Source: Frankiaceae bacterium | GTDB taxonomy: Bacteria > Actinomycetota > Actinomycetes > JAFAQI01 | Direction: 5' to 3' | DNA: 64,000 bases | Assembly: GCA_025929365.1 (NCBI GenBank) | Contig: JAICMG010000003.1 | Coordinates: 507-64,506 of the forward strand | In this document: piece by piece, positions 1 to 47,761 of the stretch | Numbering within the stretch: position 1 is the stretch's first letter | Layout of the letters: every line of letters begins with the position of its first letter | Translations under genes and position numbers: made by a program | Notes under the pieces: model-generated | Databases searched by the model: none | Seen by the model: the letters and a program-made list of their open reading frames with translations, nothing else | What the model was told of the DNA's origin: nothing

Positions 1-1110
1 CACCCCGACGTTGGTGATCGTGATCGTGCCGCGCTGCATGTCCGCCGGAGCCGTCTTGCCCTCACGCGCGGTCGCGACAAGCGCATCAAGCGCGCCCGCG
101 AGCTGCGGCAGCGACAACGAACCAGCGTCTTTGATGTTCGGCACGATCAGACCACGAGGCGTCGCAGCGGCAATGCCCAGGTTCACGTAGTCCTTGACGA
201 CGATCTCCTGCGCCTCGTCATCCCACGATGAGTTGATCATCGGATGCCGGCGTACGGCGAGGATCAACGCTCGCGCGACGAGCAACAGCGGCGAGACCTT
301 CACTCCGGTGAAGTCCGGATAGTTGCGCAGCCGCCGCGCGAGGTTCATCGTCTCCGTCACGTCGACCGTGACCCACTCGGTGACATGCGGCGCGGTGAAT
401 GCGCTTTGCACCATCGCGGTCGCGGTCGCCTTGCGCACGCCCTTGATCGGGATCCGCTGCTCACGCGTCGCGGAGTCAAAGTCGGGCCGAGCCCGCGCGG
501 AGGCGGCGTACGCCGGTGCAGCGCCGACCGCCCCACCGGCTCCCGCGGCGGCCTGCACGTCGGCGCGCGTGACCGTGCCGTTGGGGCCGCTGCCGCCGAC
601 GCCACGCAGGTCGACGCCGAGATCCCGGGCGAGCTTGCGGACCGGCGGCTTGGCCAGCACGTGGACGTCGGCCGGCTCTGCCGCGCGAATCGGCATGGAC
701 GTGGCGGCCCCAGCCGCCTGCTTGCGGGGACGACGAGTGAGCTTGCCCGCCTTCGGCCCGCTGCCGACCAGGACCTCGATCTTCTCCTCCGTGTCGACCT
801 TCGGAGCAGAAGGCACCAGGTCTCCACCCTGGATCGCGGGAGCATCCGCCGTTGCCGTCGCATCGCCCCCACCGACCTCGAAGCTGATCAGCGGCAGCCC
901 GACGTCCACCGTTGCACCTTCCGCGTGGTGCAACGTGGTGACGACCCCGGCGTACGGCGAGGGGATCTCGACTGCAGCCTTTGCGGTCTCCACCTCCACG
1001 ATCGGCTGGTTCAGCGTGACGGTGTCGCCCTCGGCGACGAGCCAATGCAGGATCTCCGCCTCGGTCAGCCCTTCCCCGAGGTCCGGCAGCAGGAAGTCCT
1101 TGGTTGCCAT
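1..1110 (-). CDS. Dihydrolipoamide acyltransferase (E2) of a branched-chain 2-oxoacid/pyruvate dehydrogenase complex; partial, C-terminus beyond window edge
   Basis: Reverse translation from the ATG at 1108-1110 reads MATKDFLLPDLGEGLTEAEILHWLVAEGDTVTLNQPIVEVETAKA (lipoyl domain), then an E3-binding and catalytic domain. The ORF runs off the window, so it is absent from the ORF track. It is the third gene of the E1a-E1b-E2 operon. Confidence 0.85.
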   Translation of the reverse strand, partial: MATKDFLLPDLGEGLTEAEILHWLVAEGDTVTLNQPIVEVETAKAAVEIPSPYAGVVTTLHHAEGATVDVGLPLISFEVGGGDATATADAPAIQGGDLVPSAPKVDTEEKIEVLVGSGPKAGKLTRRPRKQAAGAATSMPIRAAEPADVHVLAKPPVRKLARDLGVDLRGVGGSGPNGTVTRADVQAAAGAGGAVGAAPAYAASARARPDFDSATREQRIPIKGVRKATATAMVQSAFTAPHVTEWVTVDVTETMNLARRLRNYPDFTGVKVSPLLLVARALILAVRRHPMINSSWDDEAQEIVVKDYVNLGIAAATPRGLIVPNIKDAGSLSLPQLAGALDALVATAREGKTAPADMQRGTITITNVGV

Positions 1111-1126
1111 CAGACGCAGCCCGCCA

Positions 1127-2101
1127 TCAGAAGCCGATCGCCCGGTCTACGGCGTCGAGCACACGATCGAGGTCGGGCAGGTAGTCCTCCTCGATCCGCG
1201 ACGCCGGGTACGGCGTGGAGTACCCACCGACGCGCAGCACCGGCGACTCCAGGGAGTAGAAGCACTGCTCGGTCACGCGCGCGGCGACCTCGGCAGCCAA
1301 TGAGACGTACACCGGTGCCTCCGCGACGACGATCGCGTGACCGGTCTTGCGCGCGGAGGTGAACACGGTCTCCCAGTCGATCGGTGACAAGGCGCGCAGG
1401 TCGACGACTTCGAGCTCGCGTCCTTCCTCGGCGGCGGCAGCCGACGCTTCGAGGCAGGTGCGCACGCTCGGCCCGTAGGTGATCAGGGTCGCATCGGTAC
1501 CCGACCGGGCGATGCGCGCCGACCAGAGGTCGGCGGGGCTGGAGTCGGTGTCAACCTCGGCCTTGTCCCAGTACCGGCGCTTGGGCTCGAAGAAGACGAT
1601 CGGGTCGTCGCAGGCCACGGCCTGCTGGATCATCCAGTACGCGTCGGCCGGATTCGAGCACGTCACGACCTTCAAGCCGGGCGTGTGCGCGAAGTACGCC
1701 TCCGGGGACTCGCTGTGATGCTCGACAGCACCGATGCCGCCGCCGTACGGGATGCGGATCGTGATCGGCAGCTTCACGTTGCCCGACGAGCGGTAGTGCA
1801 TCTTCGCAACCTGCGTGACGATCTGGTCGAACGCCGGGAAGACGAAGCCGTCGAACTGGATCTCGCAAACCGGCCGAAAGCCTCGGATCGACAACCCGAC
1901 CGCCGTTCCGATGATCCCGGACTCGGCGAGTGGGGTGTCGATGACGCGATCCTCCCCGAAGTCCTTCGAGAGGCCGTCGGTGACCCGGAAGACCCCGCCG
2001 AGCTGCCCCACGTCCTCGCCCATGACGAGAACCTTCGGGTCGTTCTCCATGGCCTTGCGAAGGCCCTCGTTGAGGGCCTTCGCAAGTGTCAACGTCGCCA
2101 T
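1127..2101 (-). CDS. 2-oxoacid dehydrogenase E1 component beta subunit (BCKDH/PDH E1-beta)
   Basis: MATLTLAKALNEGLRKAMENDPKVLVMGEDVG...; transketolase-like beta subunit motifs. The ATG at 2099-2101 overlaps the E1-alpha stop (TGATG). Confidence 0.9.
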   Translation of the reverse strand: MATLTLAKALNEGLRKAMENDPKVLVMGEDVGQLGGVFRVTDGLSKDFGEDRVIDTPLAESGIIGTAVGLSIRGFRPVCEIQFDGFVFPAFDQIVTQVAKMHYRSSGNVKLPITIRIPYGGGIGAVEHHSESPEAYFAHTPGLKVVTCSNPADAYWMIQQAVACDDPIVFFEPKRRYWDKAEVDTDSSPADLWSARIARSGTDATLITYGPSVRTCLEASAAAAEEGRELEVVDLRALSPIDWETVFTSARKTGHAIVVAEAPVYVSLAAEVAARVTEQCFYSLESPVLRVGGYSTPYPASRIEEDYLPDLDRVLDAVDRAIGF

Positions 2102-3276
2102 CAGTGGGCTCCGACGTTCAACTTCGCCGCAGCCGGTGACTCGCCCTCGAAGGAGGCGAGGTACGCCGCCATGCCGGCGCGTTCCTCGTCGAGCAACGAG
2201 GAGCCACCGGCGTACACGTGGTCGAACAGCGACAGCGGCTCGGGGTCGGCCATCTCGATGCACGCGGCGCGAACATGCGCGGCCAGCTCATCGGCAGCGG
2301 CGCTGACGTCCGCGAAGAAGCTCGCGTCCGCAACGCCGTGTCGCGACAGGTAGGCCTTGACCCGCTCGACCGGGTCCTTCAGCTTCCACGTCTCGAGATC
2401 GGCGGCCAGCCGGTAGCGGCTCGGATCGTCCGATGTGGTGTGCGGTGCCATGCGATACGTGTAGGCCTCCACGAGCGAGGGCCCGCTGCCCTCTCGTGCC
2501 CGCGCCAGTGCGGCCCGCGTCACGGCGAGCACCGCGAGGACGTCGTTGCCGTCGACGCGCACACCCGGAAAGCCGAAGCCCTCGGCGCGGCGATACAGCG
2601 GGATGTGGCTCTGCCGTTCGACCGGCTCCGAGATCGCCCACTGGTTGTTCTGGCAGAAGAAGACGATGGGCGCGTTGAACGAGCCCGCCCAGACGAACGC
2701 CTCGTTCACGTCGCCCTGACTTGTGGCGCCATCACCGAAGAACGCCATCGCGGCGCCGTCACCACCGTCGCGCTGAATCCCCATCGCGTAGCCGGTCGCG
2801 TGCAGCGTCTGGGAGCCGATCACGATCGTGTAGAGGCCGAAGCCGTTCTCGTTGGGGTCCCACCCGCCCTGGCTCGCGCCTCGGAACAGGCCGAGCAGGG
2901 TGACCGGGTCGACGCCCTTGCAGTACGCGACGCCATGCTCGCGGTAGGTCGGAAAGGCGAAGTCGCGCTCGGTGAGCGCTCGGCCCGCCCCAACCTGGGC
3001 AGCCTCCTGGCCGAGCAGGCTGGCCCAGAGCCCGAGCTGGCCCTGCCGCTGCAACGCGGTCGCCTCGGTATCGATGCGGCGGACCATGACGAGGTCCCGG
3101 TAGAGGCTCTTGATCTCGTCGTCGGAGATGTCGAGGGCGTAGTCCGGATGCTCGACCCGCTGACCCTCCGGGGTCAGCAGCTGGACGAAGCCCGGGCCCT
3201 CCGATGGCTGCGGTAGCAGCACTTCAGTCACGGTGCACTCCTTGTGGGAATCCACTGCCATCGTGGCACGCACCAA
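2101..3276 (-). CDS. 2-oxoacid dehydrogenase E1 component alpha subunit (TPP-dependent)
   Basis: E1-alpha family sequence (…YREHGVAYCKGVDP…, GDGATSQGDVNEA TPP motif). The start could be 3276 or 3261. Confidence 0.88.
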   Translation of the reverse strand: MVRATMAVDSHKECTVTEVLLPQPSEGPGFVQLLTPEGQRVEHPDYALDISDDEIKSLYRDLVMVRRIDTEATALQRQGQLGLWASLLGQEAAQVGAGRALTERDFAFPTYREHGVAYCKGVDPVTLLGLFRGASQGGWDPNENGFGLYTIVIGSQTLHATGYAMGIQRDGGDGAAMAFFGDGATSQGDVNEAFVWAGSFNAPIVFFCQNNQWAISEPVERQSHIPLYRRAEGFGFPGVRVDGNDVLAVLAVTRAALARAREGSGPSLVEAYTYRMAPHTTSDDPSRYRLAADLETWKLKDPVERVKAYLSRHGVADASFFADVSAAADELAAHVRAACIEMADPEPLSLFDHVYAGGSSLLDEERAGMAAYLASFEGESPAAAKLNVGAH

Positions 3277-3370
3277 CCCACGTGGCTATGTGCCGTTCCC
3301 ACACTGGTCGCCGGCGACGGCGGGGATCGCCATCGATGACCGCCGGTTCGACTTCGCCTACGCTTCCGCC

Positions 3371-3817
3371 GTGGACGCTTGGGTGCTCTGGGTCATCGCG
3401 GCCGCCGCGCTGGCTGTCGCCGAGGTGCTGACGCTGACCTTCGTGCTCGCCATGTTCGCCGCGGGATGTGGCGCGGCCGCACTCGCCGCGGGGCAGGGCG
3501 GCTCGGGCGCCGTGCAATGGATCGTCTTCGGCGTCACCGACGTCCTCCTGCTCGGGGGGTTGCTCCCGGTGGCACGCCGCCATCTGCGGACGCCCTCCGA
3601 GCTCAAGTCGGGGGCTGCCCGACTGATCGGCGAGCGGGCGATGTCGCTGACGGTGATCACCACCGCCGAAGGGGGCAGGGTGAAGCTCGCCGGCAACGAG
3701 TGGAGCGCTCGGCCGTACGCCGACGGCATGGTGATACCCGCCGGTCTATGGGTCGAGGTTGTGAAGATCGACGGTGCGACCGCCCTGGTCCAACCGACCG
3801 TCGCTCCGACGTCTTAG
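3371..3817 (+). CDS. NfeD-family membrane protein (partner of SPFH/stomatin protein)
   Basis: Two N-terminal TM helices, then a C-terminal OB-fold-like segment. Sits directly upstream of and coupled to a band-7 gene. The start is uncertain (GTG at 3371; the track ORF opens at 3233). Confidence 0.6.
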   Translation: MDAWVLWVIAAAALAVAEVLTLTFVLAMFAAGCGAAALAAGQGGSGAVQWIVFGVTDVLLLGGLLPVARRHLRTPSELKSGAARLIGERAMSLTVITTAEGGRVKLAGNEWSARPYADGMVIPAGLWVEVVKIDGATALVQPTVAPTS

Positions 3818-3827
3818 GGGGACCACC

Positions 3828-4718
3828 GTGAACGCAGGGCTCATCGTCGCGATCATCATCATCGCGATCGTCATCATCCCGCTGTTGCGCTCGATCCGGA
3901 TCGTGCCGCAGGCCCGGGCCGGCGTCATCGAGCGGTTGGGCCGCTACAGCCGCACCGTCAACGCGGGCATCGCGATCGTGTTTCCGTTCGTCGACCGGCT
4001 ACGACCTCTCATCGACCTGCGCGAGCAGGTGGTCAGCTTCCCGCCACAGCCGGTGATCACGTCTGACAACCTGGTCGTCAACATCGACACCGTCATCTAT
4101 TTCACGGTCACCGATCCGCGCGCCGCGACGTATGAGATTGCCAACTACCTCCAGGCGATCGAGCAGCTCACCGTCACGACATTGCGCAACGTGATCGGTG
4201 GAATGGACCTTGAGGCCACGCTGACGAGCCGCGACCAGATCAACGGGCAGCTGCGCGGCGTGCTCGACGATGCGACCGGCCAATGGGGAATCCGCGTCAA
4301 CCGCGTCGAGATCAAGGCGATCGACCCGCCGGACTCCATCAAGGAGGCCATGGAGAAGCAGATGCGCGCCGACCGCGAGAAGCGCGCCGTGATCCTCACC
4401 GCCGAGGGCACGAAGCAGTCGCAGATCCTCAACGCTGAAGGCGAGAAGCAGGCGGCGATCCTTTCCGCGCAGGGCCAGCGAGAGGCCGAGATCCTCCGCG
4501 CCGAGGGCCAGGCGAAGGCGATCGAGACCGTCTTCGGCGCGATTCACGCGGGCAACCCGGACCCGGCGCTGCTCGCCTACCAGTACCTCGAGTCGCTACC
4601 CAAGGTCGCGTCGTACGGCAACACCGTGATCGTCGTACCGAGCGAGCTGACCACCGCGATGCAGACGATCGCCAACGGCTTCGGCCGCGGCAACGACGGG
4701 CAGCACGCGGCGAGCTGA
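3828..4718 (+). CDS. SPFH/band 7 (stomatin/prohibitin-like) membrane protein
   Basis: N-terminal TM (LIVAIIIIAIVIIPLL) followed by a band-7 domain and a coiled-coil EAEGEKQAAILSAQGQREAEILRAEGQ. The RBS gggggacc precedes the GTG at 3828. Confidence 0.8.
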   Translation: MNAGLIVAIIIIAIVIIPLLRSIRIVPQARAGVIERLGRYSRTVNAGIAIVFPFVDRLRPLIDLREQVVSFPPQPVITSDNLVVNIDTVIYFTVTDPRAATYEIANYLQAIEQLTVTTLRNVIGGMDLEATLTSRDQINGQLRGVLDDATGQWGIRVNRVEIKAIDPPDSIKEAMEKQMRADREKRAVILTAEGTKQSQILNAEGEKQAAILSAQGQREAEILRAEGQAKAIETVFGAIHAGNPDPALLAYQYLESLPKVASYGNTVIVVPSELTTAMQTIANGFGRGNDGQHAAS

Positions 4719-4743
4719 CCGCCGGCCGGTACCGTCATTCGGG

Positions 4744-5667
4744 ATGGCTGGCGACACTTTCGACGCGAGAACGTGGGCGACGCGACTCGGTCGCGTCGGC
4801 GTCTGGACCGGCCAGCTCGACTACTCCGCTGCCGACGTCGTGCGCGAAGCGGCCCGCGAGATCGAGGCCTCGGGATACCGCGCGATTTGGACCGGGGAGG
4901 CCGTCGGGCGCGAGGTGTTGACCGCGGCTCAGCTTCTCCTCGCGTCGACCGACTCACTCGTCGTCGCGACCGGCATCGCCAACGTCTGGGCCCGGGACGC
5001 GCTGGCCACCGCAGCGGGTCAGCTCGCCCTCGGCGAGGCCTATCCCGACCGCTTCGTGCTCGGCATCGGTGTGTCGCACAAGCCGCTGCTCGACGTGCGC
5101 GGCGAGGACTACCGCACGCCGCTGACGTTCATGCGTGACTACCTCGACGGCATGGACTCCGCGTACGGCGTGTACCGCGCAGTACCTCCGGCCGCGCGGC
5201 CGCCGCGACTGCTCGCCGCACTCGGCCCGAAGATGGTGGCGCTGGCCGCCGAACGGGCAGACGGGGCGCACACGTACTTCGTCCCGCCCGAGCACACCGC
5301 CGTCGCCCGCGAGATTCTCGGCCCGAACCGGTTGCTGGTCCCCGAGCAGGTCTGCGTGCTGTCCGACGACGCCACCGTCGCGCGGGAGATCGCGCGCCGC
5401 CACACGACGTCGTACCTACGCCTGCCCAACTACACGACCAACCTGCAGCGGTTCGGATTCGAGCCGGCGGACTTCGCCGACGGCGGCAACGACCGGCTGG
5501 TCGACACGATCTGTGTGTGGGGTTCGATCGATGCCGTGGCCGCGCGAGTCAAGGCGCACCTCGATGCGGGCGCCGATCACGTCGCCGTGCAAGTTCTGGT
5601 CGACGATCGCCGTGGCCTTCCCCGCCAGGAATGGGCCGAGCTGGCACCGGCGTTGTTGGCCCTATGA
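4744..5667 (+). CDS. LLM-class F420-dependent oxidoreductase (luciferase-like monooxygenase family)
   Basis: Luciferase-like TIM-barrel sequence typical of the actinobacterial F420-dependent LLM family. The stop overlaps the next start (ATGA). Confidence 0.75.
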   Translation: MAGDTFDARTWATRLGRVGVWTGQLDYSAADVVREAAREIEASGYRAIWTGEAVGREVLTAAQLLLASTDSLVVATGIANVWARDALATAAGQLALGEAYPDRFVLGIGVSHKPLLDVRGEDYRTPLTFMRDYLDGMDSAYGVYRAVPPAARPPRLLAALGPKMVALAAERADGAHTYFVPPEHTAVAREILGPNRLLVPEQVCVLSDDATVAREIARRHTTSYLRLPNYTTNLQRFGFEPADFADGGNDRLVDTICVWGSIDAVAARVKAHLDAGADHVAVQVLVDDRRGLPRQEWAELAPALLAL

Positions 5668-6479
5668 GCGCGTTCGAAAAGGCGACCGCGATCCGGCGGC
5701 GCGGCGAGTCCCCGCAGTACGACGTGGAACTCGACCCGGGCTGGAACATCGGCGACAAGCCGAACGGCGGCTACCTGCTCGCGCTCCTGGCGCGCGCCGC
5801 CTGTGACGTGGTCGGCACCGAACACCCGCTTGCCGTGACGGCGCACTATCTGCGCGCACCGGACTCCGGCCCTGCCGAGGTCCGGACCGAGGTGATCCGA
5901 AGTGGCCGCCGTGCGTCGACCTCGCGGGCGGTCTTGTGGCAGGACGACAAGCCGTTCATCGACGCGACGGTGACGAGTGGACGCCTGAATGCGGTTGCCC
6001 CGGACTGGGTCGAGGGCGGACCGGCGGGCATGCCTTCACCGGAGGAGTGCGACGGAAGAGGAAATCCGAACTTTCCGATCTCGCTGTTCGACAACGTCGA
6101 CATGCGCGTCGATCCGGCGACCATCGCCTTCGATCTAGAGACGGGTAAGCCGATCCCGAACGGCACGCCCGCGGAACGCTATTGGTTCCGCCTTCGAGAC
6201 GGCGCGGAGCCTGACGTCATGTCGCTGCTGATCGCCGTGGACTGCGCATTTCCCACCGTGTTCCACCTCGGTCGCTTCGGCTGGGCACCGACGGTCGAGC
6301 TCAGCGTTCTGCTGCGCGGCATTCCGGCGCCGGGCTGGCTCGCATGTGAAGCCCACACCCGACTCGTCGCGGACGGGTGGTTCGACGAGGAGGCGTCCGT
6401 GTGGGACTCCACCGGGCGGCTGGTCGCCCAGTCGCGCCAGCTGGCCCTGGCGGGCGGCGACCCTCCGAAGTCGTCGTGA
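5664..6479 (+). CDS. Acyl-CoA thioesterase family protein (hotdog fold)
   Basis: Thioesterase-like hotdog sequence. The ATG at 5664 is verified in the sequence. Confidence 0.6.
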   Translation: MSAFEKATAIRRRGESPQYDVELDPGWNIGDKPNGGYLLALLARAACDVVGTEHPLAVTAHYLRAPDSGPAEVRTEVIRSGRRASTSRAVLWQDDKPFIDATVTSGRLNAVAPDWVEGGPAGMPSPEECDGRGNPNFPISLFDNVDMRVDPATIAFDLETGKPIPNGTPAERYWFRLRDGAEPDVMSLLIAVDCAFPTVFHLGRFGWAPTVELSVLLRGIPAPGWLACEAHTRLVADGWFDEEASVWDSTGRLVAQSRQLALAGGDPPKSS

Positions 6480-7123
6480 TAGACGACCCCGCCGCCGCCG
6501 CGCCGGTTCGTATCGACCCCGCGCGCAAGAAGATCGCCGACGACGCCAAGGGCTTCATGCCAGACGCCGAGGCAGAGGCGTTGTACGACGCCGCGTGGGC
6601 GATGGCGTCATACGGTCCGATCCTCGAGATCGGGACCTACTGCGGGAAGTCGGCGACCTGGCTAGGTGCCGCGGCGGAAGCGCGCGGTGGTCAGGTCGTG
6701 ACCGTCGACCACCATCGCGGATCCGAAGAGAACCAGGCGGGATGGGAGCACCACGACACCGATCTCGTCGACCCGACCGTGGGACTGATGGACACCCTCC
6801 CGTTCTTCCGCAGGACGATGCACGCCGCTGGGCTCGAGGATGTCGTGACCGCTGTGATTGCGCGGAGCCGGACGGCTGCGGCACTTTGGTCGACGCCGCT
6901 GGCGATGTTGTTCATCGACGGCGGCCACGCCGAGGAGCATGCGCAGGCCGACTACGCCAACTGGTCGGGTTTCGTGATGGCGGACGGCGTCCTTGCGATC
7001 CACGATGTCTTTCCCGATCCCGCCGATGGCGGGCAAGCTCCGTTCCACATCTATGAGCGAGCGATCCGCGAGGGCTTCCGCGAAGTCCGCGTCGTCGGAA
7101 GTCTGCGCGTCCTCCGCCGGTAG
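6473..7123 (+). CDS. Class I SAM-dependent methyltransferase (O-methyltransferase family 3-like)
   Basis: ILEIGTYCGKSATWL SAM-binding motif. The GTG at 6473 overlaps the upstream stop (GTGA). Confidence 0.7.
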   Translation, partial: VVIDDPAAAAPVRIDPARKKIADDAKGFMPDAEAEALYDAAWAMASYGPILEIGTYCGKSATWLGAAAEARGGQVVTVDHHRGSEENQAGWEHHDTDLVDPTVGLMDTLPFFRRTMHAAGLEDVVTAVIARSRTAAALWSTPLAMLFIDGGHAEEHAQADYANWSGFVMADGVLAIHDVFPDPADGGQAPFHIYERAIREGFREVRVVGSLRVLRR

Positions 7124-7311
7124 CACCACAAATCGGGGCATACGCCGCGGAAACCGCTTCGCCTGGTGCACACGAGCTAGTGCGCCATGAGCATTCGGGG
7201 CTATTACCAGCAGAGCAGGATGACACTAGTCCGCTATTCAGATCGACGTGCGGTTGACGACATGCTTGCCGATGGTGGCCACCCCAGCGGGCCACGCAGC
7301 GGGAGGGCATC

Positions 7312-8937
7312 GTGTCGAACTCTGGACGAACCACGCGCAGTATCTTCCGGCGCGTCGGCGCACTGCTGGCTTCCGGCGGTCTGATCGCCGGCGGTCTGAC
7401 CGCTGCGGCCGTCCCGGCATCGGCTAGCTCGCCGATCAATGTCATCGTCGAGGGCAGCTCTCCGGCCGGTCTCCAGACCTACATCGCGTTGGTCGGCGGA
7501 CACACCGTCACGCCGCTTCCGTTGGTCAACGGAGTCCTCGCGCAGGTCCCGTCGAGTCTTGCGCTCACGACGCTGCAGACCCTCGGCCTGGTCACGAGCC
7601 CTGACGCGCCCGTCGCGGTGGACGGCCTCGCCGGTGCGCTTCCTGCTACCGCGCCGGCACCGGCCAACACCTTCCCGGCAGCTACCGGCGCGACCAAGCT
7701 CGCGGCGCAGGGAGTCACCGGCACGGGGGTAGGTGTCGCGGTACTGGACACCGGTGTCGATGCGCTCCCTGATTTCGGCCGGCGTCTGCTCGGTGGCGTC
7801 GATCTGTCGGGCGGTAACAACCCGTTCCAGGACAGCTACGGTCACGGCACCTTCATCGCGGGCCTGATCGCCGCCGACGGCAGCTCCTCCTCCGGCGCCT
7901 ACACGGGTGAAGCGACCGACGCCAATCTCGTTTCGGTCAAGGTTGCCGGTGTCAGCGGCACCACCGACGTCGCGACGGTGATCCAGGGCATCACGTGGAC
8001 GCTCGCGAACCGCAATGCCTACGGCATCAAGGTTCTCAACATGTCCCTCGGCGAGGTGCCGACCGGACCCACGCAGCTCAATCCGCTCGACCAGGCGGTC
8101 GAGGCAGCCTGGCGGGCCGGCCTGACGGTCATCACGTCAGCCGGCAACAGTGGACCGGCGGCGGGCACGATCACCTCCCCAGGCGATGACCCCTATGTCA
8201 TTACCGTCGGCGCACTGAATGACCAGGCCACCGTGGCCGGCGGCGATGACAGCATCCCGTCGTTCAGCAGTGAGGGTCCGACCTCGGCGAACGGCTGGTT
8301 GAAGCCAGACCTCGTCGCTGCCGGCCGGTCGGTGGTCAGCCTGCGCGCGCCGGGTTCGTCGATCGACCGGAACTACCCGAGCGCTGAGGTCGGTACCAGC
8401 AACTTCGTGGGCTCCGGCACGTCGTTCTCAACAGCAATCACCAGCGGCGCCGCGGCGCTTGTCGCCGAGCAGAATCCGACGGCGACGCCCAACCAGATCA
8501 AGGCGCGACTGCTCGCGACTGCCACCCCGGGACCGACCGGCAGCGCCACCGTCGAGGGTCACGGCGATCTCGATGCGTACGACGCGGCTACCTGTCCGCC
8601 GGTCACGCTGTCCCAGAGCTTCAACTCGGTGGTCATGCCGGCCGCCCCTGGCGTCTCCATTCCGTTGCTCACGACATGGGCGGTGTCGGGCTGGAACCAG
8701 TTGAACTACAGTTCCGACGTCGCGTCAAACGCGTGGGACTCCAACGCCTGGGACTCCAACGCCTGGGACTCCAACGCCTGGGACTCCAACGCCTGGGACT
8801 CCAACGCCTGGGACTCCAACGCGTGGGACTCCAACGCGTGGGACTCCAACGCCTGGGACTCCAACGCGTGGGACTCCTCGGCCTGGAACTCAAACGCGTG
8901 GGATTCCAACGCCTGGGACTCCTCGACCTGGCAGTAG
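7312..8937 (+). CDS. Secreted S8-family serine peptidase (subtilisin-like) with a C-terminal SNAWD pentapeptide tandem-repeat tail
   Basis: Signal peptide present. Catalytic triad contexts are VLDTGVD (Asp), HGTFIAG (His) and GTSFSTA (Ser). The last ~70 aa are 14 five-residue repeats. Confidence 0.85.
   Translation: MSNSGRTTRSIFRRVGALLASGGLIAGGLTAAAVPASASSPINVIVEGSSPAGLQTYIALVGGHTVTPLPLVNGVLAQVPSSLALTTLQTLGLVTSPDAPVAVDGLAGALPATAPAPANTFPAATGATKLAAQGVTGTGVGVAVLDTGVDALPDFGRRLLGGVDLSGGNNPFQDSYGHGTFIAGLIAADGSSSSGAYTGEATDANLVSVKVAGVSGTTDVATVIQGITWTLANRNAYGIKVLNMSLGEVPTGPTQLNPLDQAVEAAWRAGLTVITSAGNSGPAAGTITSPGDDPYVITVGALNDQATVAGGDDSIPSFSSEGPTSANGWLKPDLVAAGRSVVSLRAPGSSIDRNYPSAEVGTSNFVGSGTSFSTAITSGAAALVAEQNPTATPNQIKARLLATATPGPTGSATVEGHGDLDAYDAATCPPVTLSQSFNSVVMPAAPGVSIPLLTTWAVSGWNQLNYSSDVASNAWDSNAWDSNAWDSNAWDSNAWDSNAWDSNAWDSNAWDSNAWDSNAWDSSAWNSNAWDSNAWDSSTWQ
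8725..8934 (+). repeat. Near-perfect 15-nt tandem repeat, 14 copies (tccaacgcctgggac), encoding (SNAWD)n at the C-terminus of the S8 peptidase
   Basis: Read directly from the sequence. The copies differ only at c/g wobble positions and in the last three units. Confidence 0.95.
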
Positions 8938-8952
8938 CGGACTGATGCGGAC

Positions 8953-11661
8953 ATGACATCAATGAGGCTGCCGGCGCGCGCTCGCGTCCTGATCGCGGCG
9001 GTCGTCACGAGTGCCGGAAGTTGCATTGCGTGGTCCGCCGTCCGATCAGGGCACGAGGGAGTCGGGTCCACCGCCGCGCTCCTCGTCCTCACGGCAATGT
9101 TGGTCTTTTGTGCCAAGTTCCCACTACTGCTCCACACCAACGACTACTCCGAGGCTGTCAGCTTCGACGAGGGTCTGCTGGCGGTCGCACTCGCCACGTT
9201 GACGACACCCGCGCTGATCCTGACCTTCGCTGCCAGCCAGTTCGCCGCGCAGATCTGGCGGCGGCGCGGTGCAGTCAAGGCGCTGTTCAACACGGGACAG
9301 TTCACGCTGTCCGCCACGGCAGCGGTCCTGCTTGCCGATGCCGTGGGTCGGCCGAACGGGACGGGCGCTGCGGCGTTGCCCCTCGTCATGCTCGCCGGGG
9401 TGCTGACCTTCATGGCCGTCAACACCGCGCTCGTGGGCGGCATGCTGGTCGCGGTCAGTGATCGGCCATTGCTCGAAGTCCTCCTGGAGGGAACCCGGCC
9501 GCGCTTCCTGCTCGTCGCCGCCGGAACCATGGCCGGCGTTCTCGGCGGGATTGCGGCCGCCAGCAACCGGTGGGCCCTGCTCCTCGTCCCAGCGGCCTTC
9601 CTCCTGCTGCGGCGGGTCCTCGCCGGCCACTTCGACGCCAAGCGCGATCGCGATCGGGTGGTCGGCCTCCTGGACGCCGCACGGACGATTCACGGCGCCA
9701 CCACCGACGGCAGGATCTACGAAACGGTCGAGGCTGCTGCCTCTCGTCTCCTGCGCGGAGAGGCGCACATCGTCGAGTCGCCCGCGCCCGGCGCCCTGGC
9801 GAGCGCGCAGCTTTCGTCGCTGGATGCGTCGCTGGTCGTGTCGAACGGCCGGTCGAGCGAGCCCTTCGACGCCGCCGATCACCACGTGCTCGTCGCCATC
9901 GCGGAGATCGCCGACGGTGCCTTCACGAACGCCGCGCTCTACGTGGAAGTGCAGCAACAGCGGCGCGAGATCGAAGCGATCCTCGCCAACCTGGCCGAGG
10001 GCGTCTGTGCCTTTGATGCCACGGCGCGGCCGACGTTCTGGAACGCCGCGGCACAACAGCTGCTCGGAACGAGCATCGAGGCATTCGACCCCACGTCGGC
10101 AAGCGGAGAGACGTTGCTGGCACCGGTTCGCCGTTGTCTGCAATCCGGGGCGACGCTCAACGCAACGATGACCCTCACTCGCCAGGACAACACGCCGCTC
10201 CCCGTCAGCTTCACCTGCGCGGCTACTCGCGAGGGCGACATCATCAACGGCGTCGTCCTCGCGTTCCGCGATGACACCGAGCGGCTTGGTTTCGAAGCGC
10301 AGCTCACACACCACGCGTTCCACGACCAGTTGACCGGGCTCGCGAACCGGCGACTCTTCATCGACCGCCTCGATCAAGCGGTCCGCCGCGCCGAGCGTCA
10401 CGGCGGCTTGACCGCGGTGCTCTTCATCGACATCGACCGGTTCAAGCTCATCAACGACAGCCTCGGACATCAGGCCGGCGATCGATTGCTGCGCGAGATC
10501 GCCGAACGGCTCACGGCCGCTGTCGGCTCCTACGACACCGTCGCCCGCATCGGTGGCGACGAGTTCACCCTGCTGCTCGATGAGATTCCCAACGCCGCGA
10601 CCGCACACGCCGTTGCCAACCGGCTCGAGCGCGCGATGGAGATACCGATCGAGGTCGCGCCCTCGCGCACTGTGGTCGCGAGCTTGTCAGTCGGGGTGGC
10701 GATCTCGCGCCCAGGCGCAACCGGCGATGACCTCCTTCACGACGCCGATCTCGCCATGTACGAGGCGAAGGCAGAGGGCCTCGGCCGGTGGAAGGAGTAC
10801 GCCGGCGGGACCGCGCACTCGCTCGCGCAGCTCGAGCTCGAGGAAGACCTTCGCCGCGCGATCGCTCGCGGCGAGATCGAGGTGTTCTTCCAGCCGATGG
10901 TGCTCGCGACGGATGGCGCGGCGGCCGACGCGGAAGCGCTCGTCCGCTGGCGCCATCCGCAGCGCGGGCTGATTCCGCCGAGTGAGTTCATCCCGGTCGC
11001 CGAGAAGACCGGACTGGTCCTTGCGCTGGGGCTGCTGGTGCTTCGTGAGGCGTGCCGGCAGTGCCGGGTATGGCAGGACGAGCTCGGCGTCGAGATCGGC
11101 GTCAGCGTGAACCTCTCCGCCCGGCAGTTCCAGGACGGCGACCTTGTCGAACATGTGCGTGCTGCGCTCGAGGAAGCCGAGCTGCCCGCCGAGCGGCTGT
11201 GTCTCGAGATCACCGAGACGCTTGCGATGCGCGAAACGGAATGGACGATCCAGGCCCTTAATCGGCTCAAGGAGATCGGCGTACGAGTGGCGATCGACGA
11301 CTTCGGGACCGGCCATTCCTCGCTGAACTACCTCAAGCGGTTCCCGATCGACGTCGTGAAGATCGACGGCAGCTTCGTCGCTGACATCACCACGAGCGTG
11401 GTGGACAACGCGATCATCACCGCCATCGTGAGGCTCGCTCAAACTCTCGACATCACCACAGTCGCGGAGTGCGTCGAGGACCGCGATCAGCTGGTGGCAC
11501 TACGGTCGCTGGGCTGCGACCTGATCCAGGGCTACCTGTTCGCGAAGCCGATGCCGAGCACCGAGCTCAACCAGTGGCTCGCGAGCGCGACGGATCCCGC
11601 GGTCATCAGGATTCCCACCCCTCGGCCGTCGCGCGTTGAGTTCGCCGCGCTCGGCGACTAG
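8953..11661 (+). CDS. Membrane-anchored sensory diguanylate cyclase/phosphodiesterase (N-terminal ~6-TM domain, PAS/GAF, GGDEF, EAL)
   Basis: GGDEF motif ([10 protein letters not shown]), EAL motif (EALVRWRHP) and the EAL-domain DDFGTG signature. The N-terminal 200 aa are hydrophobic. Confidence 0.9.
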
Positions 11662-12797
11662 CGGCGGGCGGGGGTTTTGCAGCCGCAGGCGTCGGTCTCG
11701 ATCCGCACCGGCAGCGGCAGGTCGTCGGCGCGGAAGATGCCGCTCGCGGGTGACGCGTGCGACAGCGCGTCGGCGGCGAGCACGACGGCCGCAGCCGTCC
11801 AGGTCGACTGCTCCGCGGGCCAGTAGACCTGCGCCTTGAACTGCCACCCGGTCCAGTACGAGCCGTCGTCGGCACGCATGTGCTGGATGTCGGCGTAGAG
11901 CTGCAGCGCCTCGTCCCGCATGTCGACAGTGTCGAGCGCCATCACGCACTCCGCCGACTCCGCACCCGTCACCCAGGGCTCGTCATCGACGCAGCGGATG
12001 CCGAGCCCTGGCACGACGTACCGGTCCCAGCGGCTCCTGAAGCGCTCGATCGCGGCCTGTCCGCGAAGCGCGCCGCCGAGCACCGGGTAGTACCAGTCCA
12101 TCGAGAAGCGATCCTTCTCGGCGAACACCTCGGGGTGCTCGGCGATGAGGTGCGCAAGCTGGCCGGCCGCGATCTCCCACTCCGGCTGCGGCTCGTCGAA
12201 GTACTCGGCCAGCGCCAGGCCGCACCGCAGTGAGTGGTACGTCGATGATGAGCCGGTCAGCAGCGGACCGCCCTCGCGTTCCTCGCCCTCCGGCGTCACC
12301 GACCAGGCGATCTCGCCGCGCTCGGTGGCGTACGACGTCACCAGATCAAGGCCGAGCTTGACGTGCGGCCACATCCGCTCGAGCTCTTCCTCGTCACCGG
12401 TGACGAGGAAGTGATGCCACGCCCCGACCGCGATGTAGGCGCACTGGTTGGTCTCGAAGGTGGCGTCCTCGACGATGCCGCCGGTGATCTTCGACGCCCA
12501 CGACCCATCCGGGCGCTGCATCCGGCGCAGGTAGTCGTACGCCGCCGCCACAGGCTCGGTAAGGCCGGCAAGCGTCATGGCCATCGCGCCCTCGATGTGG
12601 TCCCACGGGTCGCAGTGACCGCCCGTGAACCACGGGATCGCGCCGTCAGGTTCCTGCGCTCGCGCAATCGACTCGGCGGTCGCGCGAACCTGTTGCGCGG
12701 AGATGATGCCCTCGACCGCGGGGATCGTCAGCGCGCTACGCCGCCGCACTGTTGCCTCCTGCCCCGCCGGTGCCTGCGAGCGCGGGTTTGTCGGCAT
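11658..12797 (-). CDS. Prenyltransferase/squalene-cyclase-repeat (alpha-alpha toroid) protein
   Basis: Repeated ...DGSW/DGSYW...QCAY... prenyltransferase-like repeats. It is the last gene of the GT4-MTase-PT cassette. The start is uncertain (12797, or the GTG near 12716). Confidence 0.6.
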
Positions 12798-13482
12798 AAA
12801 CGACGAGGCTCTTCCCCATCACCGGATTAAGCAGCTTCTCCGCGGTGCGAGTGATCCACGGCGCGGACATGATGTCCCAGACGAGCATCTTGTTGTAGAT
12901 CCGCGACGGCAGGCTCTCGCGGCCGAAGGTGCAGTTGAGCCACCAGTACGGCGAGTGCAGCGCATGCGCGTGGTGCTGCGCGCGGGGCACCACGCCCGCC
13001 TCGGTCAGGCGCGCCTTCAGCTGGTCGCCTCGGTAGATCCGGATGTGACCGCCCGGCACGTCCTGGTACTCGCGTGGCAGTGCCCAGTTGATCTGCTCCG
13101 GCCACCACCGCGGCACGGTCACCGCGAGGCGGCCGCCGGGCTTGAGGATGCGGGAGATCTCGGCAATCGCCCGATCGTCCTCCGGGATGTGCTCGAGCAC
13201 CTCGGCCACGATCACCGCATCGAACGACGCGTCGGGAAACGGCAACGACACGATGTCGCCACGCACGACCTTGGCGGACGCCTTCTCGGGCGCCTCGCCG
13301 CTCGTGCTCATGGCGTAGAACATCGTCGCCACCTGACGCAGCTCGTCGAGGCTGTAGTCACAGGCGACGACCTCGGCGCCGCGCCGGTAGAGCTCGAACG
13401 CGTGACGCCCACCGCCGCACCCGAGATCGAGCACCCGCTCGCCCGGCGCGATCGGGAACTGCTCGAAGTCGACGGTCAGCAC
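12736..13482 (-). CDS. Class I SAM-dependent methyltransferase
   Basis: VLDLGCGGGRHAFEL motif I. Tightly coupled to the upstream GT4 gene (stop at 13483, start at 13482). Confidence 0.8.
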   Translation of the reverse strand: MLTVDFEQFPIAPGERVLDLGCGGGRHAFELYRRGAEVVACDYSLDELRQVATMFYAMSTSGEAPEKASAKVVRGDIVSLPFPDASFDAVIVAEVLEHIPEDDRAIAEISRILKPGGRLAVTVPRWWPEQINWALPREYQDVPGGHIRIYRGDQLKARLTEAGVVPRAQHHAHALHSPYWWLNCTFGRESLPSRIYNKMLVWDIMSAPWITRTAEKLLNPVMGKSLVVYADKPALAGTGGAGGNSAAA

Positions 13483-14778
13483 TTACTTGCCCGCCGACTC
13501 CGCCGCCCGACGTGCAATGGCTTCGCGGTACACCTCGACCATCGACTCGGCCACGCGACGCCAGGTGTAGGAGGTTTCGATCCGCTTGCGGCCCGCCGTA
13601 CCGATGGCCTTGCGACGAGCGTCGTCGTCGAACAGCGCGTCGAGCGCATCGGCGAGCTCGGCGGGGTCGCCCGGCTCGACGAGGACGGCGGTCTTCCCGT
13701 CATGCCCGACCACCTCGGGCAGCGCGCCACCGCGGGTGGCGATCAGCGGCGTGGCGCAGGCCATCGCCTCGACCGCCGGGATCGAGAAGCCCTCGTAGAG
13801 CGACGGCACCACGGCCACCTCGGCGGAGCCGAGCAGCTCGGCGATCGCGTCGTTCGACAGGCCCGACACGAACCGGACGTCCGCCGAGAGGTCGAGGTCC
13901 CGCACCGCGCGTGCGACCGGGCCGTCGGGGTTCGGCTTGCCGACGACGACGAGCTCGACATCGTGGCCGGTGCGCACCTTGGCGACCGCCTCGAGCAGCA
14001 CCTTCACGCCCTTGATCGGGGAGTCGGAGCTGGAGACCGCGACGATCCGGCCGGGCACCCGTGGTGCCTTCGGGGGACGGAAGGTGTCGGTGTCGACACC
14101 GATCGGGACCACCCGCATGACCGACGGGTCCACACCGAAGTCGCGGGCGATGTCCTGGCCGGAGTTGGTCGAGACCGTGACGATCGACGCGAGCCGGCTG
14201 GCCACCTTGCCCTGCATCTTCGTGAAGCCGTACCAGCGGCGCTTGCCGAGCTTTTCGCGGATGCCCTGCGCGTTGGCGATCTCGACGACCCGGTCGACGC
14301 TCACCGGGTGGTGGATGGTGGCGATCAGCGGAAGGATCTTGGCGACCTTGAGCATTCCGTAGCCGAGCGTCTGGTTGTCGTGGACGACATCGAAGTCGCC
14401 GGCCCTGGCCTTCAGCAAGCGGGCCGCTCGCAGCGAGAACGTCAGGGGCTCAGGGAACCCCCCGGTTCCCATGTGCAGGAACTCCAGGACGTCGATCCAG
14501 TCGCGGAACTCGCGCGGCCTGGGCACGCGGAACGGGTCGGGCTCACGGTAGAGATCGAGACTGGCCAGCTTGGTGAGCGATGGCCCGGGGTCCAGCTCCG
14601 GGTACGGCTGGCCACTGATGACCTCGACCTGGTGGCCGAGATCGACCAGCTCACGGGACACATGGCGGACGTAGACGCCTTGGCCACCGCAGTGCGGCTT
14701 GCTCCGATAGGACAGCAGGGCGATCCGCAGCGAGTCAGGACCGTTGGGGAAGTCGTCCACGCGGCAGCCGCACCTCAA
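13483..14778 (-). CDS. Glycosyltransferase family 4 (GT-B, retaining)
   Basis: N-terminal RIALLSY...GGQGVYVRHVSRELVDLGH motif and a C-terminal EGFSIPAVEAMACATPLIAT GT1/GT4 motif. Confidence 0.8.
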   Translation of the reverse strand: MRCGCRVDDFPNGPDSLRIALLSYRSKPHCGGQGVYVRHVSRELVDLGHQVEVISGQPYPELDPGPSLTKLASLDLYREPDPFRVPRPREFRDWIDVLEFLHMGTGGFPEPLTFSLRAARLLKARAGDFDVVHDNQTLGYGMLKVAKILPLIATIHHPVSVDRVVEIANAQGIREKLGKRRWYGFTKMQGKVASRLASIVTVSTNSGQDIARDFGVDPSVMRVVPIGVDTDTFRPPKAPRVPGRIVAVSSSDSPIKGVKVLLEAVAKVRTGHDVELVVVGKPNPDGPVARAVRDLDLSADVRFVSGLSNDAIAELLGSAEVAVVPSLYEGFSIPAVEAMACATPLIATRGGALPEVVGHDGKTAVLVEPGDPAELADALDALFDDDARRKAIGTAGRKRIETSYTWRRVAESMVEVYREAIARRAAESAGK

Positions 14779-14927
14779 TCACGCTGGCGCGACCGAGATG
14801 CGCGCACGGACCTTTGATCCTATCGAGCGGGATTCCGAACGTCGTTCGGCGGGCCCCCGAATCGGTCAAACCGCCCACACGTGCTGGTTACGGCACACTG
14901 TCCCGAGCCGCCAACCCGGAGGTCCGT

Positions 14928-16064
14928 ATGCCGCTGAGCCGACGTGAGCTCATGCGGGGCGCCGCCCTGCTCGGCTCCCTTTCGTCAGTGGCCGGAACGT
15001 TCGGAGCGGGCGCCGCGAGAGCCGACACCCCTGTCGGCTCGAGCCCGGCGCTCACCTCCGCCGACTACTTCGACCTCTCGACGGTCACGACGACGTCGTT
15101 TCAGACGAGCGGTCCACAAATCGGGCTGCGGACGTCCCAGACGCACTTTCAAGTGCAGGGGCTCGCCATCAACAGCGCCACGAACCAGTTCTTCATCGCC
15201 CAGGCGCCCGACCCCGTCCGGCCCAAGCTGCGCATGACGATGAACGGAACCAGCTGGACGGCCGACGGGTACAACCAGCACGCCTCCGGTGACCTCGTGA
15301 TCTCCCGCTTCGACCTGGCCACCTACCGGCTGCGCGACTCGATGTATTTCATGGGCGCGGGCCACGGCGGGCAGATCGGGATCGAGCCCTCGAGCCCGCT
15401 CGCGTACCTGTGGGCAGAGGTCTATCCGGGCAATCCCAAGCAGACCTCGGGCACGACCAGCTCACAGGTGTGGGGCACCCACCTGGCCCGGCTGCCCTAC
15501 GCAGCCGGTCGGTTGATGACCAACACCCAGGTCGTGCCGCACCGGTACTCCTCGACGCCGTACATCGTCGAGAGGTACGGCCCGGTTGCCGGCGCTCATC
15601 AGTTCAACGCCGCGATCGACACCTCCTCGGCGTACGGCGAGTCCGCCACCGGCGTCCTCGTCGTCCGGTACCGGCTCGGCGGCGACCCGTCGGGATCGCC
15701 GCGTCGGTTCACCGCCTTCGACCTCGACGCCGCGAGCAGGGGTGACTTCTCGGCACCGCTTGCGACGACCACCGAGCCGATCGAGATCATGGAAGGCGGT
15801 GGACACTCCGAGGGCTACGCGACGTGTGGGCAGTACATCTATCTGGTCGCGACGGACGGCAGCGGCAATCCCTGGCTCTACCAGGTCGATTTCAACGGCG
15901 TTCCGGGGACGTACATGACGAAGGTCGCTCTCCCCGGCAGCGGTGAGCCGGAAAGCGTCGCGCTGCTCGCTCCGAACCGCAGCCCCGCACGCCTCTACTA
16001 CCTCACCGCCGGAGTCCACCATCCGCGCACCTTTGACCTCTTCTTCCTGGGCACCACTGCATGA
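14928..16064 (+). CDS. Tat-secreted hypothetical protein
   Basis: RBS ggagg, then ATG at 14928. Twin-arginine signal MPLSRRELMRGAALLGSLSSVAGTFGAGAARA. No recognisable catalytic motif. Confidence 0.6.
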   Translation: MPLSRRELMRGAALLGSLSSVAGTFGAGAARADTPVGSSPALTSADYFDLSTVTTTSFQTSGPQIGLRTSQTHFQVQGLAINSATNQFFIAQAPDPVRPKLRMTMNGTSWTADGYNQHASGDLVISRFDLATYRLRDSMYFMGAGHGGQIGIEPSSPLAYLWAEVYPGNPKQTSGTTSSQVWGTHLARLPYAAGRLMTNTQVVPHRYSSTPYIVERYGPVAGAHQFNAAIDTSSAYGESATGVLVVRYRLGGDPSGSPRRFTAFDLDAASRGDFSAPLATTTEPIEIMEGGGHSEGYATCGQYIYLVATDGSGNPWLYQVDFNGVPGTYMTKVALPGSGEPESVALLAPNRSPARLYYLTAGVHHPRTFDLFFLGTTA

Positions 16065-47659: not shown

Positions 47660-47761
47660 ACGTGCATTGTCACCCGGACCGTCCACGCCCTCCATAGTCC
47701 GAGATGACTATTCGCCCGCGCAGGTCAGCGTGCGGGACACGCCGAGCGACGCGCACCTGCC

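Follow-up and report, generated by a model that had tools for sequence, protein, structure and literature searches.

Our bioinformatic analysis of a 64,000-nt stretch of DNA from a Frankiaceae bacterium (assembly GCA_025929365.1, contig JAICMG010000003.1, positions 507 to 64,506 of the forward strand; hereafter the window) shows two adjacent genes, 7312-8937 and 8953-11661, to be, at the level of sequence, a conserved two-gene cassette of uncultured soil Actinomycetota. The first encodes an S8 subtilase that ends in a tandem array of tryptophan (Trp) pentapeptides, and the second a sensor that joins a MASE9-like membrane domain to GGDEF and EAL domains. It is proposed that the two gene products act as one module in which the Trp array is a multivalent tether or contact element coupling the exported protease to the sensor; this reading, whose coupling mechanism we infer, stands at somewhat less than an even chance.

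The evidence for the cassette is synteny. At a coverage of at least 50%, 69 of 81 loci have the sensor gene directly downstream of the S8 gene and in the same orientation; the arrangement holds even where the S8 proteins are about 55% and the partners about 40% identical, and when all window neighbours were compared the sensor gene was the sole conserved one. Of 82 sources (the window, a near-identical contig and the 80 best genome loci, all 80 of them from metagenome-assembled genomes, MAGs), 70 have an open reading frame (ORF) of at least 600 aa that begins no more than about 130 nt from the S8 stop; several of the others are cut by contig ends or frameshifts, and in relatives the partner homology begins 7-40 nt past the S8 stop. 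An earlier interpretation made from the letters of the window (the sequence-only reading) had already linked the protease to the downstream GGDEF-EAL gene, and this link, conserved in about 70 of the 82 loci, proves stronger than that reading could know; the 17-bp gap that it gave is corrected to 15 nt if the sensor starts at the ATG at 8953, or 24 nt if it starts at the ATG at 8962, the start called on the near-identical contig. A scan of the window returned no terminator-like site between the two genes, and Rfam, tRNA and promoter/terminator scans found nothing.

The N-terminal region of the sensor has six to eight hydrophobic segments with short loops, judged by hydropathy and conservation, and no extracytoplasmic domain. 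It carries the conserved motifs SEAxxFDEG and RRRPxVKSxFNxGQ (in a looser form RRRxxVKxxFNxGQ), and K109 and N113 are invariant. The partner thus appears to possess the polytopic domain, the short loops and the polar or charged residues in the membrane core that are expected of MASE9. MASE9 is described as a promiscuous eight-segment membrane sensor whose ligand is not known and is proposed to bind within the membrane; HdgA of Streptomyces venezuelae is the one member studied, and the MASE9 passages of the description (Galperin and Chou, bioRxiv 10.1101/2021.11.05.467447) mention no protease partner. Our sensor alignment resembles the described domain in that the PF20972 (MASE9) profile matches 11 of the 18 aligned N-termini (15 from the window family and three partners from other clades) at E<=0.1, with a best value of 7e-6, and in that the domain joins GGDEF-EAL, HD-GYP and kinase outputs; unlike MASE9 as presented in those passages, it is found here regularly beside a Trp-repeat S8 gene. 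With 28.8 bits, the L045 orthologue passes the PF20972 cutoff of 24.3; the one in L013 reaches 17.6 bits. The only match to the profile of the sensor membrane domain in a word-indexed protein search was an unrelated MASE9-HD-GYP protein. Among orthologues the GGDEF motif is intact in 65 of 70, EALVR in 65 of 70 and DDFGTG in 63 of 70, so that the GGDEF-EAL partners look like active enzymes and not like LapD-type receptors.

The partnership extends beyond the close relatives of the window. Contigs were examined for nine Trp-repeat S8 proteins that are 33-45% identical to the window S8 protein, all encoded in DNA of high guanine-plus-cytosine (GC) content, and seven were informative (Table 1). 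A profile of residues 1-232 of the sensors of the window family, with scores subject to the compositional bias of membrane domains, gave 80 bits on the partner in L084, 49 in L083, 42 in L082, 40 in L091 and 28.5 in L090; the HD-GYP partner in L087 (17.3 bits; Pfam MASE9 16.3 against a cutoff of 24.3) and the kinase in L085 (7.9 bits; BLASTP E=0.003) scored weakly. A MASE9-like partner therefore appears clear in five of the seven clades and weak in two, and these comparisons show an association that seems to follow the membrane domain, not cyclic di-GMP (c-di-GMP) as such, across three output types (GGDEF-EAL, histidine kinase and HD-GYP). In L085/L086 (2701-9191) the Trp-tail S8 gene heads a cluster of a histidine kinase, a response regulator, a CheA-like kinase and CheW, an order from which it follows that the protease-sensor pair can feed a chemotaxis-type pathway. 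A further observation concerns L089, where two Trp-tail S8 paralogues with GSTWS and GSSWS units stand in tandem (5001-6734 and 6920-8545).

The product of the first gene (on record as P0274) is predicted to be a catalytically intact protease. PF00082 (Peptidase_S8) matches it with E=1.1e-41 and 143.4 bits against a cutoff of 21.8, and all 85 homologues compared keep D146, H178, N279 and S371; the profile, the Asp-His-Ser order and the oxyanion Asn together place it in the S8 family. The nearest solved chains, 9ues_B and 3afg_A, cover residues 125-426 only (PDB sequence matches). Judged by inspection of the N-terminus, the protein is of the exported type, with a basic n-region, a hydrophobic core and a cleavage site between PASA and SS; the AxA-type site is kept as PAASAS in the consensus of the homologue alignment, and the region has a low per-residue confidence score (pLDDT) in the AlphaFold2 model. 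Twin-arginine export was considered and rejected: the RR of the window signal peptide is unconserved in homologues, and Sec export is therefore assumed. The putative propeptide is modelled as beta-alpha-beta-beta-alpha-beta with pLDDT 87-95 and is followed by a confident subtilisin core; Pfam returned no match for it, and the I9 label comes from the fold pattern alone. In the linker that precedes the array W461 is invariant and N462 nearly so in two homologue alignments. The protein resembles S8 subtilases with accessory C-terminal parts, such as Tk-SP of Thermococcus kodakarensis (3afg) and the type VII mycosins, in its signal peptide, propeptide and D/H/S domain; it differs in that the C-terminal part is a Trp-pentapeptide array and not a jelly-roll or P-domain. 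The top NCBIfam model is the mycosin equivalog TIGR03921 (147.4 bits), a score so far under the cutoff of 278.75 that the protease is to be taken as a mycosin relative, not a mycosin. The polar Trp array in place of a C-terminal transmembrane anchor, and the absence of an ESX neighbourhood, also separate it from mycosins; the gene has metabolic genes and the GGDEF-EAL gene as its neighbours in the window.

The array makes up the 70 C-terminal residues and reads SNAWD ten times, SSAWN (unit 11), SNAWD twice and SSTWQ (unit 14), which amounts to 12 SNAWD units among the 14. The sequence-only reading had described an exported S8 subtilase ending in 14 in-frame 15-nt units at 8725-8934, and on all these points it was right, the export type again by inspection of the N-terminus. 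It had further taken the array to be perfect or nearly so at the DNA level, in a genome of 70% GC. The window has 68.2% GC, and the array holds five distinct DNA units, set apart by synonymous TCA/TCC, GCC/GCG and GAC/GAT exchanges and by the variant units 11 and 14; Tandem Repeats Finder (TRF; period 15, 13 copies, score 313, far beyond chance) reports 89% matches, and the longest identical DNA stretch covers units 2-6 only. Between units, the proportion of synonymous differences (pS) is 0.39 and that of nonsynonymous differences (pN) 0.041. Unit 11, SSAWN, keeps an Asn that is the consensus of sister lineages, which fits incomplete homogenisation. Three other ORFs span the array, at 8669-8962 (-), 8676-8945 (+) and 8706-9140 (-), with SPRRW, GLQRL and ESQAL repeats; they were rejected as genes, being by-products of the 15-nt period. 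An N-glycosylation sequon, WN(S/G/A)(S/T), was likewise considered and dropped, for SNAWD and SNAWN units lack it.

The sequence-only reading had suggested a search for further proteins with (SNAWD)n. The whole protein, used as a query, returned 3134 homologues; of the best 120, nearly every one finishes in xxxW[ND] repeats. The tail has the form small-small-(A/S/T)-W-(N/D), with Trp invariant in every unit in alignments of 22, 85 and 106 sequences, mostly Ala before the Trp and mostly Asn or Asp after it, and the homologues nearly always end one residue past the last Trp. Closer relatives, which are named Mycobacteriales MAGs, have uniform units that depend on the lineage (SNAWN, ASAWN, SSAWN, ASSWN, SSNWN, SSSWD or STAWD), and distant relatives (Acidimicrobiales, Streptosporangiaceae and other Actinomycetota MAGs) carry GSAWN, GTAWD, GNAWN or GTTWN-like units, or 14 different ones. 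A strict run with Trp at every fifth residue has its modal length of 14 units in 37 of the 82 sources, and uniform arrays span 6-24 units; several of the 80 MAGs are long-read, and the closed chromosomes L045 and L069 carry arrays of 18 and 24 units, so that long arrays are not assembly artefacts.

A HMMER scan of the tail profile against 1.84 billion protein representatives matched 2515 of them at E<=1e-3, with an S8 domain in 47 of the top 150. A second architecture appeared among these matches, in the order signal peptide, propeptide, Trp repeat and S8 domain, and some secreted proteins that have no protease domain carry the repeat as well. The remainder of the top 150 are mainly translated eukaryotic 5-nt satellites, with some Firmicute-like secreted proteins and one eukaryotic adhesion G-protein-coupled receptor (GPCR). 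P0133, P0136, P0140, P0159 and many others, with units such as GMEWN, GMAWH, GMVWY and GLAWL, look like translated 5-nt satellite DNA, and the adhesion-type GPCR P0124 (7tm_2 and GPS motif) has 93 consecutive xxVWN units in its ectodomain. The Firmicute-like secreted proteins P0214, P0148 and P0173 carry xxxW[ENQ]G units right after the signal peptide and all finish in a Gly/Ala-rich hydrophobic region; in P0214 the Trp-type units run directly into GSDFN units that Pfam scores as Pentapeptide (E=5.5e-9).

No known domain was recognized in the tail itself. Neither Pfam nor NCBIfam matches the window tail (E<=1) or either of two diverged tails (E<=10), no solved pentapeptide-repeat chain in the PDB fits the tail profile at E<=10 (the best PDB match of any kind has E=2.8), and our literature search found nothing relevant on the Trp repeat or on the protease-sensor gene pair. 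AlphaFold2 models of the window protein and of a member with a diverged tail, built with 85 and 106 sequences, give the tail a pLDDT of 26-34 with no strands or beta-helix, a confidence too low to exclude a fold, and 53 diverged tails show no similarity peak between units at lag 4 (20 residues). The small-small-A/S/T-W-N/D unit is, as judged from these searches, an undescribed repeat type with thousands of members in S8 proteins of uncultured Actinomycetota, and the window tail, far from being a novelty of its lineage, appears to descend from an array ancestral to a very large family.

For the evolution of the array, the closest comparison is a contig of GCA_025980775.1 (L001), whose alignment to positions 1-16874 of the window (99.63% identity) contains 48 mismatches and one gap; this sole gap in 16.9 kb spans one 15-nt period of the array, so that the contig has 13 units where the window has 14. 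Within clusters of at least 90% identity the uniform arrays count 13, 4 and 13 units in one, 13 units in five members and 10 in one in another, and 13, 10, 12, 12 and 10 in a third, and clusters whose arrays consist of 14 different units are almost fixed at 14. The length variation of uniform arrays is therefore judged real, with the reservation that short-read assemblies can miscount a 210-bp array. A scan of metagenome DNA for strain-level counts gave 0 matches to the exact right-flank 20-mer and 120 chance matches to a degenerate pattern, none of them with an array. In L065, a long-read MAG, a shift of frame within the Trp array (about 7080-7680) joins the protease ORF to the sensor gene that follows; a sequencing error in the repeat is the probable cause.

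The peptide is conserved more strictly than the DNA that encodes it. L003 has ASAWN 12 times from eight DNA sequences (pS 0.61, pN 0), and 11 of the 12 units of L004 differ in DNA (pS 0.80), with TCN/AGY serine switches among the differences; pN/pS lies between 0 and 0.15 in uniform arrays. Units that are identical in amino acids over scrambled, near-saturated synonymous codons point to selection that holds the units to a lineage-specific peptide, so that selection, and not recent duplication alone, maintains the uniformity. In the 53 tails of the diverged clade conservation is position-specific, with G[FW][AT]W[TS] at unit 4, S[RK]AWN at unit 5, DGxWA at unit 6 and GAAWN at unit 7. Taken together, these alignments show the window array to be an ancestral array, of some 14 units, in a state that is uniform and variable in length. 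Protein-identical units over scrambled codons in some lineages, and a frozen set of 14 different units in others, make a rare evolutionary pattern.

These results divide the remaining claims of the sequence-only reading. Its expectation that copy number varies is upheld, by 14 against 13 units at 99.6% identity and by 10-13 units (one array with 4) within clusters of at least 90% identity, and the placing of SNAWD outside the classical pentapeptide-repeat family agrees with the searches of Pfam, NCBIfam and the PDB and with the AlphaFold2 models, which predict no beta-helix. Its inference from DNA identity to recent expansion fails, since that identity is moderate and synonymous differences are near-saturated in relatives; nor is the expansion specific to the lineage, for tails with Trp at every fifth residue and a modal 14 units occur in thousands of actinobacterial S8 proteins. 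It had named, as evidence that would tell against it, a widespread repeat domain together with an invariant copy number; the domain is indeed widespread, and the copy number is not invariant.

In the module proposed here, the protease and sensor genes would probably be co-transcribed, and the protease would be exported by Sec and would activate itself through removal of its I9 propeptide. The unstructured Trp-rich tail would then keep the enzyme on the outside of the membrane or envelope, in touch with a MASE9 domain that has almost no extracytoplasmic part, and extracellular proteolysis would thus be coupled to the output of the sensor, in the window the synthesis and breakdown of c-di-GMP. 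Control could run in either direction, the protease feeding the sensor or the sensor holding the protease. Trp together with Asn or Asp is typical of membrane-interface and glycan contacts. A multivalent tether fits better than a fixed-size fold because the tail is predicted to be unstructured, 6-24 units are tolerated and the repeat can stand N- or C-terminal to the catalytic domain; the composition suited to interface and sugar contacts, and the occurrence in secreted proteins without a protease, also favour it. Since MASE9, like several other sensor domains embedded in the membrane, responds to a signal that is not known, a genomically coupled protease with a Trp-rich array would be a concrete lead to what the sensor responds to, and the family, seen so far only in uncultured soil Actinomycetota, would add to how these abundant organisms sense their surroundings.

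Known systems offer partial parallels to such a module. LapD of Pseudomonas is a membrane c-di-GMP protein that controls the exported protease LapG, and by analogy with that pairing of a membrane GGDEF-EAL protein and an exported protease a coupling of surface proteolysis to c-di-GMP is plausible here. However, LapG is a cysteine protease and the present enzyme belongs to S8, the domains of LapD are degenerate and accompanied by a periplasmic domain whereas the GGDEF and EAL motifs here are intact in 65 of 70 partners that have no outside domain, and other clades have kinase or HD-GYP outputs; membership of the LapD/LapG type was rejected on the S8 class, the intact motifs and the missing extracytoplasmic domain. 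Aromatic-rich wall binders such as GW modules and choline-binding repeats, and the exported mycobacterial protein Erp with its PGLTS pentapeptides, may likewise be compared as exported tandem short repeats with strain-variable copy number and aromatic binding elements, but unit length and sequence differ and no homology was detected.

Several points weigh against coupling through a tether. The evidence consists entirely of sequence from uncultured organisms, the top 80 genome matches being MAGs throughout, and the unit counts come from assemblies, which in short-read MAGs can be wrong for an array of this length. The MASE9-like character of the window sensor itself is assigned by orthology, its own score being below threshold: it is too diverged, and no PF20972 match was reported for it. 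A MASE9-HD-GYP gene in L088 (2-1436) has no Trp-repeat gene upstream, so the partnership covers a subset of MASE9 proteins; its downstream neighbour, on the opposite strand, encodes a helical-repeat-looking protein. We know of no precedent for a Trp-pentapeptide anchor, the low AlphaFold2 confidence could also mean a novel fold, and co-transcription, export and autoprocessing are all steps that we infer. A plain tether also leaves unexplained why units are identical within an array and yet differ between lineages.

That last pattern is best explained if the tail is a self-processing precursor of peptide signals, in which the subtilase or a partner would cut at every Trp and release about 14 pentapeptides (e.g. 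DSNAW or SNAWD) as a membrane-partitioning ligand of MASE9. We consider this unlikely, though it is the best placed of the alternatives. Among S8 enzymes, subtilisins often cleave after an aromatic residue (P1), and fungi use kexin-type members to process peptide precursors built of tandem repeats. The amino-acid-identical units over scrambled codons in L003 and L004, and a consensus that changes from lineage to lineage in the manner of pherotypes (SNAWD, SNAWN, ASAWN, SSAWN, ASSWN, SSNWN, SSSWD), are what such a precursor would be expected to show; a tail predicted to be disordered would be accessible, and the second architecture places the repeat in the pro-region, between propeptide and catalytic domain. 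The partner, moreover, is a polytopic sensor without an outside domain, of a kind whose ligand is proposed to bind within the membrane (bioRxiv 10.1101/2021.11.05.467447). Most members of the family, however, have 14 mutually different units conserved position by position, spacers and cleavage motifs are absent, and the repeat is found too in secreted proteins that lack a protease domain. The Gram-positive peptide-pheromone cassettes agrBDCA (agrD/agrB/agrC) and comQXP (comX/comP), like the kexin-processed tandem-repeat precursors of fungi, are the natural points of comparison: as in agr and com, by analogy, a gene for an exported peptide would lie beside that of a polytopic sensor with no outside domain, and the units are lineage-specific and internally uniform. 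Here, by contrast, precursor and protease would be one polypeptide, spacers are missing, the units of most members are non-identical and cleavage is conjectural. If true, a single-polypeptide protease and pheromone precursor would make up a quorum or autocrine cassette that feeds c-di-GMP, histidine-kinase or HD-GYP outputs in soil Actinomycetota.

A folded Trp-ladder solenoid, as the sequence-only reading had suggested, in which each unit would form one side of a beta-helix coil related to pentapeptide repeats and would anchor the enzyme to wall or environmental polysaccharide independently of the sensor, gained no support in this analysis and is improbable. The strict five-residue period, with small residues two before the centre and G or S two after it, is shared with pentapeptide-repeat proteins (PF00805; Qnr, MfpA, Rfr), the register S/T-A-W-N/D-G resembles A(D/N)LxG with Trp as the central residue, and in P0214 the Trp-type units are contiguous with Pfam Pentapeptide units; stacked ladders would favour the same residue in every unit, and the diverged tails keep exactly 14 units with position-specific residues. 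Unlike PF00805 proteins, however, the tail has a central Trp in place of Leu or Phe, stands at the end of an extracellular protease, and shows neither an HMM match nor a 20-residue (four-unit) super-period; to this are added the two AlphaFold2 runs without strands, the failure of Pfam and NCBIfam to match even at E<=10 with a best PDB value of 2.8, the tolerance of 6-24 units, and the synteny with the sensor, which a solenoid of this kind leaves unexplained.

Many subtilases carry removable C-terminal extensions, and a disordered tail (as predicted) of flexible unit number might be one more, a pro-segment or spacer of low complexity that has no specific partner and is lost, or plays no part, once the enzyme has been exported, with the synteny reflecting shared regulation only; we hold this to be very unlikely, given a Trp that is invariant at every fifth residue over deep divergence, the strong selection against amino-acid change in uniform arrays, and a repeat that tracks the MASE9 partnership over S8 clades 33-45% identical and over three output types. 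Least probable of all is the core of the sequence-only reading, a recent lineage-specific expansion that serves as a length-variable contingency locus: units 2-6 are DNA-identical, the out-of-register 15-nt indel is the only gap against the 99.6%-identical contig and counts differ inside the clusters of at least 90% identity, yet the array was already present in the ancestor of a very large family, some count differences may be assembly artefacts, between-unit pS has reached 0.39 in the window and is as high as 0.8 in relatives, and variation that stays in frame cannot switch the gene on or off. Membership of the phase-variable loci was rejected on this last ground, the single frameshift seen, in L065, being probably an error.

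Table 1. Features of the protease-sensor cassette in the window, and genes beside nine Trp-repeat S8 proteins of other clades
Feature	DNA	Position	Strand	Basis or remark
S8 subtilase coding sequence with C-terminal Trp-pentapeptide array	window	7312..8937	+	GTG start, 541 aa; ORF list, Pfam
Signal peptide, residues 1-39 (MSNSGRTTRSIFRRVGALLASGGLIAGGLTAAAVPASA, cleaved before S)	window	7312..7428	+	read by inspection
I9-like N-terminal propeptide (putative), residues 41-103	window	7432..7620	+	fold pattern in AlphaFold2 model
Peptidase_S8 catalytic domain, residues 137-418	window	7720..8565	+	Pfam
Catalytic D146	window	7747-7749	+	
Catalytic H178	window	7843-7845	+	
N279 (oxyanion)	window	8146-8148	+	
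Catalytic S371	window	8422-8424	+	
Linker, residues 427-471	window	8590..8724	+	degenerate aromatic units TTW-AVSGW-NQLNY
Trp-pentapeptide array, 14 x 15 nt in frame	window	8725..8934	+	TAG stop 8935-8937
Junction, 15 nt, S8 stop to first sensor ATG	window	8938..8952	+	
Membrane MASE9-like-GAF-like-PAS-GGDEF-EAL protein coding sequence, 902 aa	window	8953..11661	+	Pfam PAS, GGDEF, EAL
Polytopic membrane sensor region, residues 1-228, MASE9-like	window	8953..9636	+	conservation, hydropathy
PAS domain, residues 339-444	window	9967..10284	+	Pfam PAS_4, PAS
GGDEF domain, residues 455-609, GGDEF motif at 534	window	10315..10779	+	Pfam E=1.6e-45
EAL domain, residues 631-866, EALVR at 661, DDFGTG at 782	window	10843..11550	+	Pfam E=1.3e-78
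Beside P0246: membrane-GAF-GGDEF-EAL	L083	10 nt downstream of S8		
Beside P0152: membrane-GAF-GGDEF-EAL	L090	overlapping S8 stop		
Beside P0177: membrane-GAF-GGDEF-EAL	L091	167 nt downstream of S8		
Beside P0144: membrane protein	L084	25 nt downstream of S8		truncated by contig end
Beside P0210: histidine kinase, then response regulator and CheA/CheW	L085/L086	overlapping S8 gene end		
Beside P0248: PAS-histidine kinase	L082	upstream	opposite to S8	
Beside P0125: HD-GYP protein	L087	upstream	opposite to S8	
Beside P0198: second Trp-tail S8 gene	L089	next, then contig end		uninformative
Beside P0141: unclassified gene	L092	adjoining, short contig		uninformative

Downstream of the cassette, a gene for a 363-aa protein of no Pfam family (11658-12749, -) converges on the sensor gene with a 4-nt overlap. 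A methyltransferase and a GT4 glycosyltransferase come after it, and conservation of this 363-aa gene is confined to the two closest relatives. Other repeats occur elsewhere in the window. A 478-aa exported-looking protein (46259-47695, -) contains an in-frame 15-nt tandem repeat at 46396-46455 (4 copies, 93% matches) that encodes TKPATTKPATTKAATTKAAKP near its C-terminus. A single-stranded-DNA-binding-type protein (36028-36528, -) has a run of 14 glycines, with repeats at 36117-36161 that account for the CCG and CACCGC rows of TRF, and a 33-nt tandem repeat at 4391-4462 (2.2 copies, 79% matches) lies inside a Band_7 (SPFH) gene at 3828-4718.

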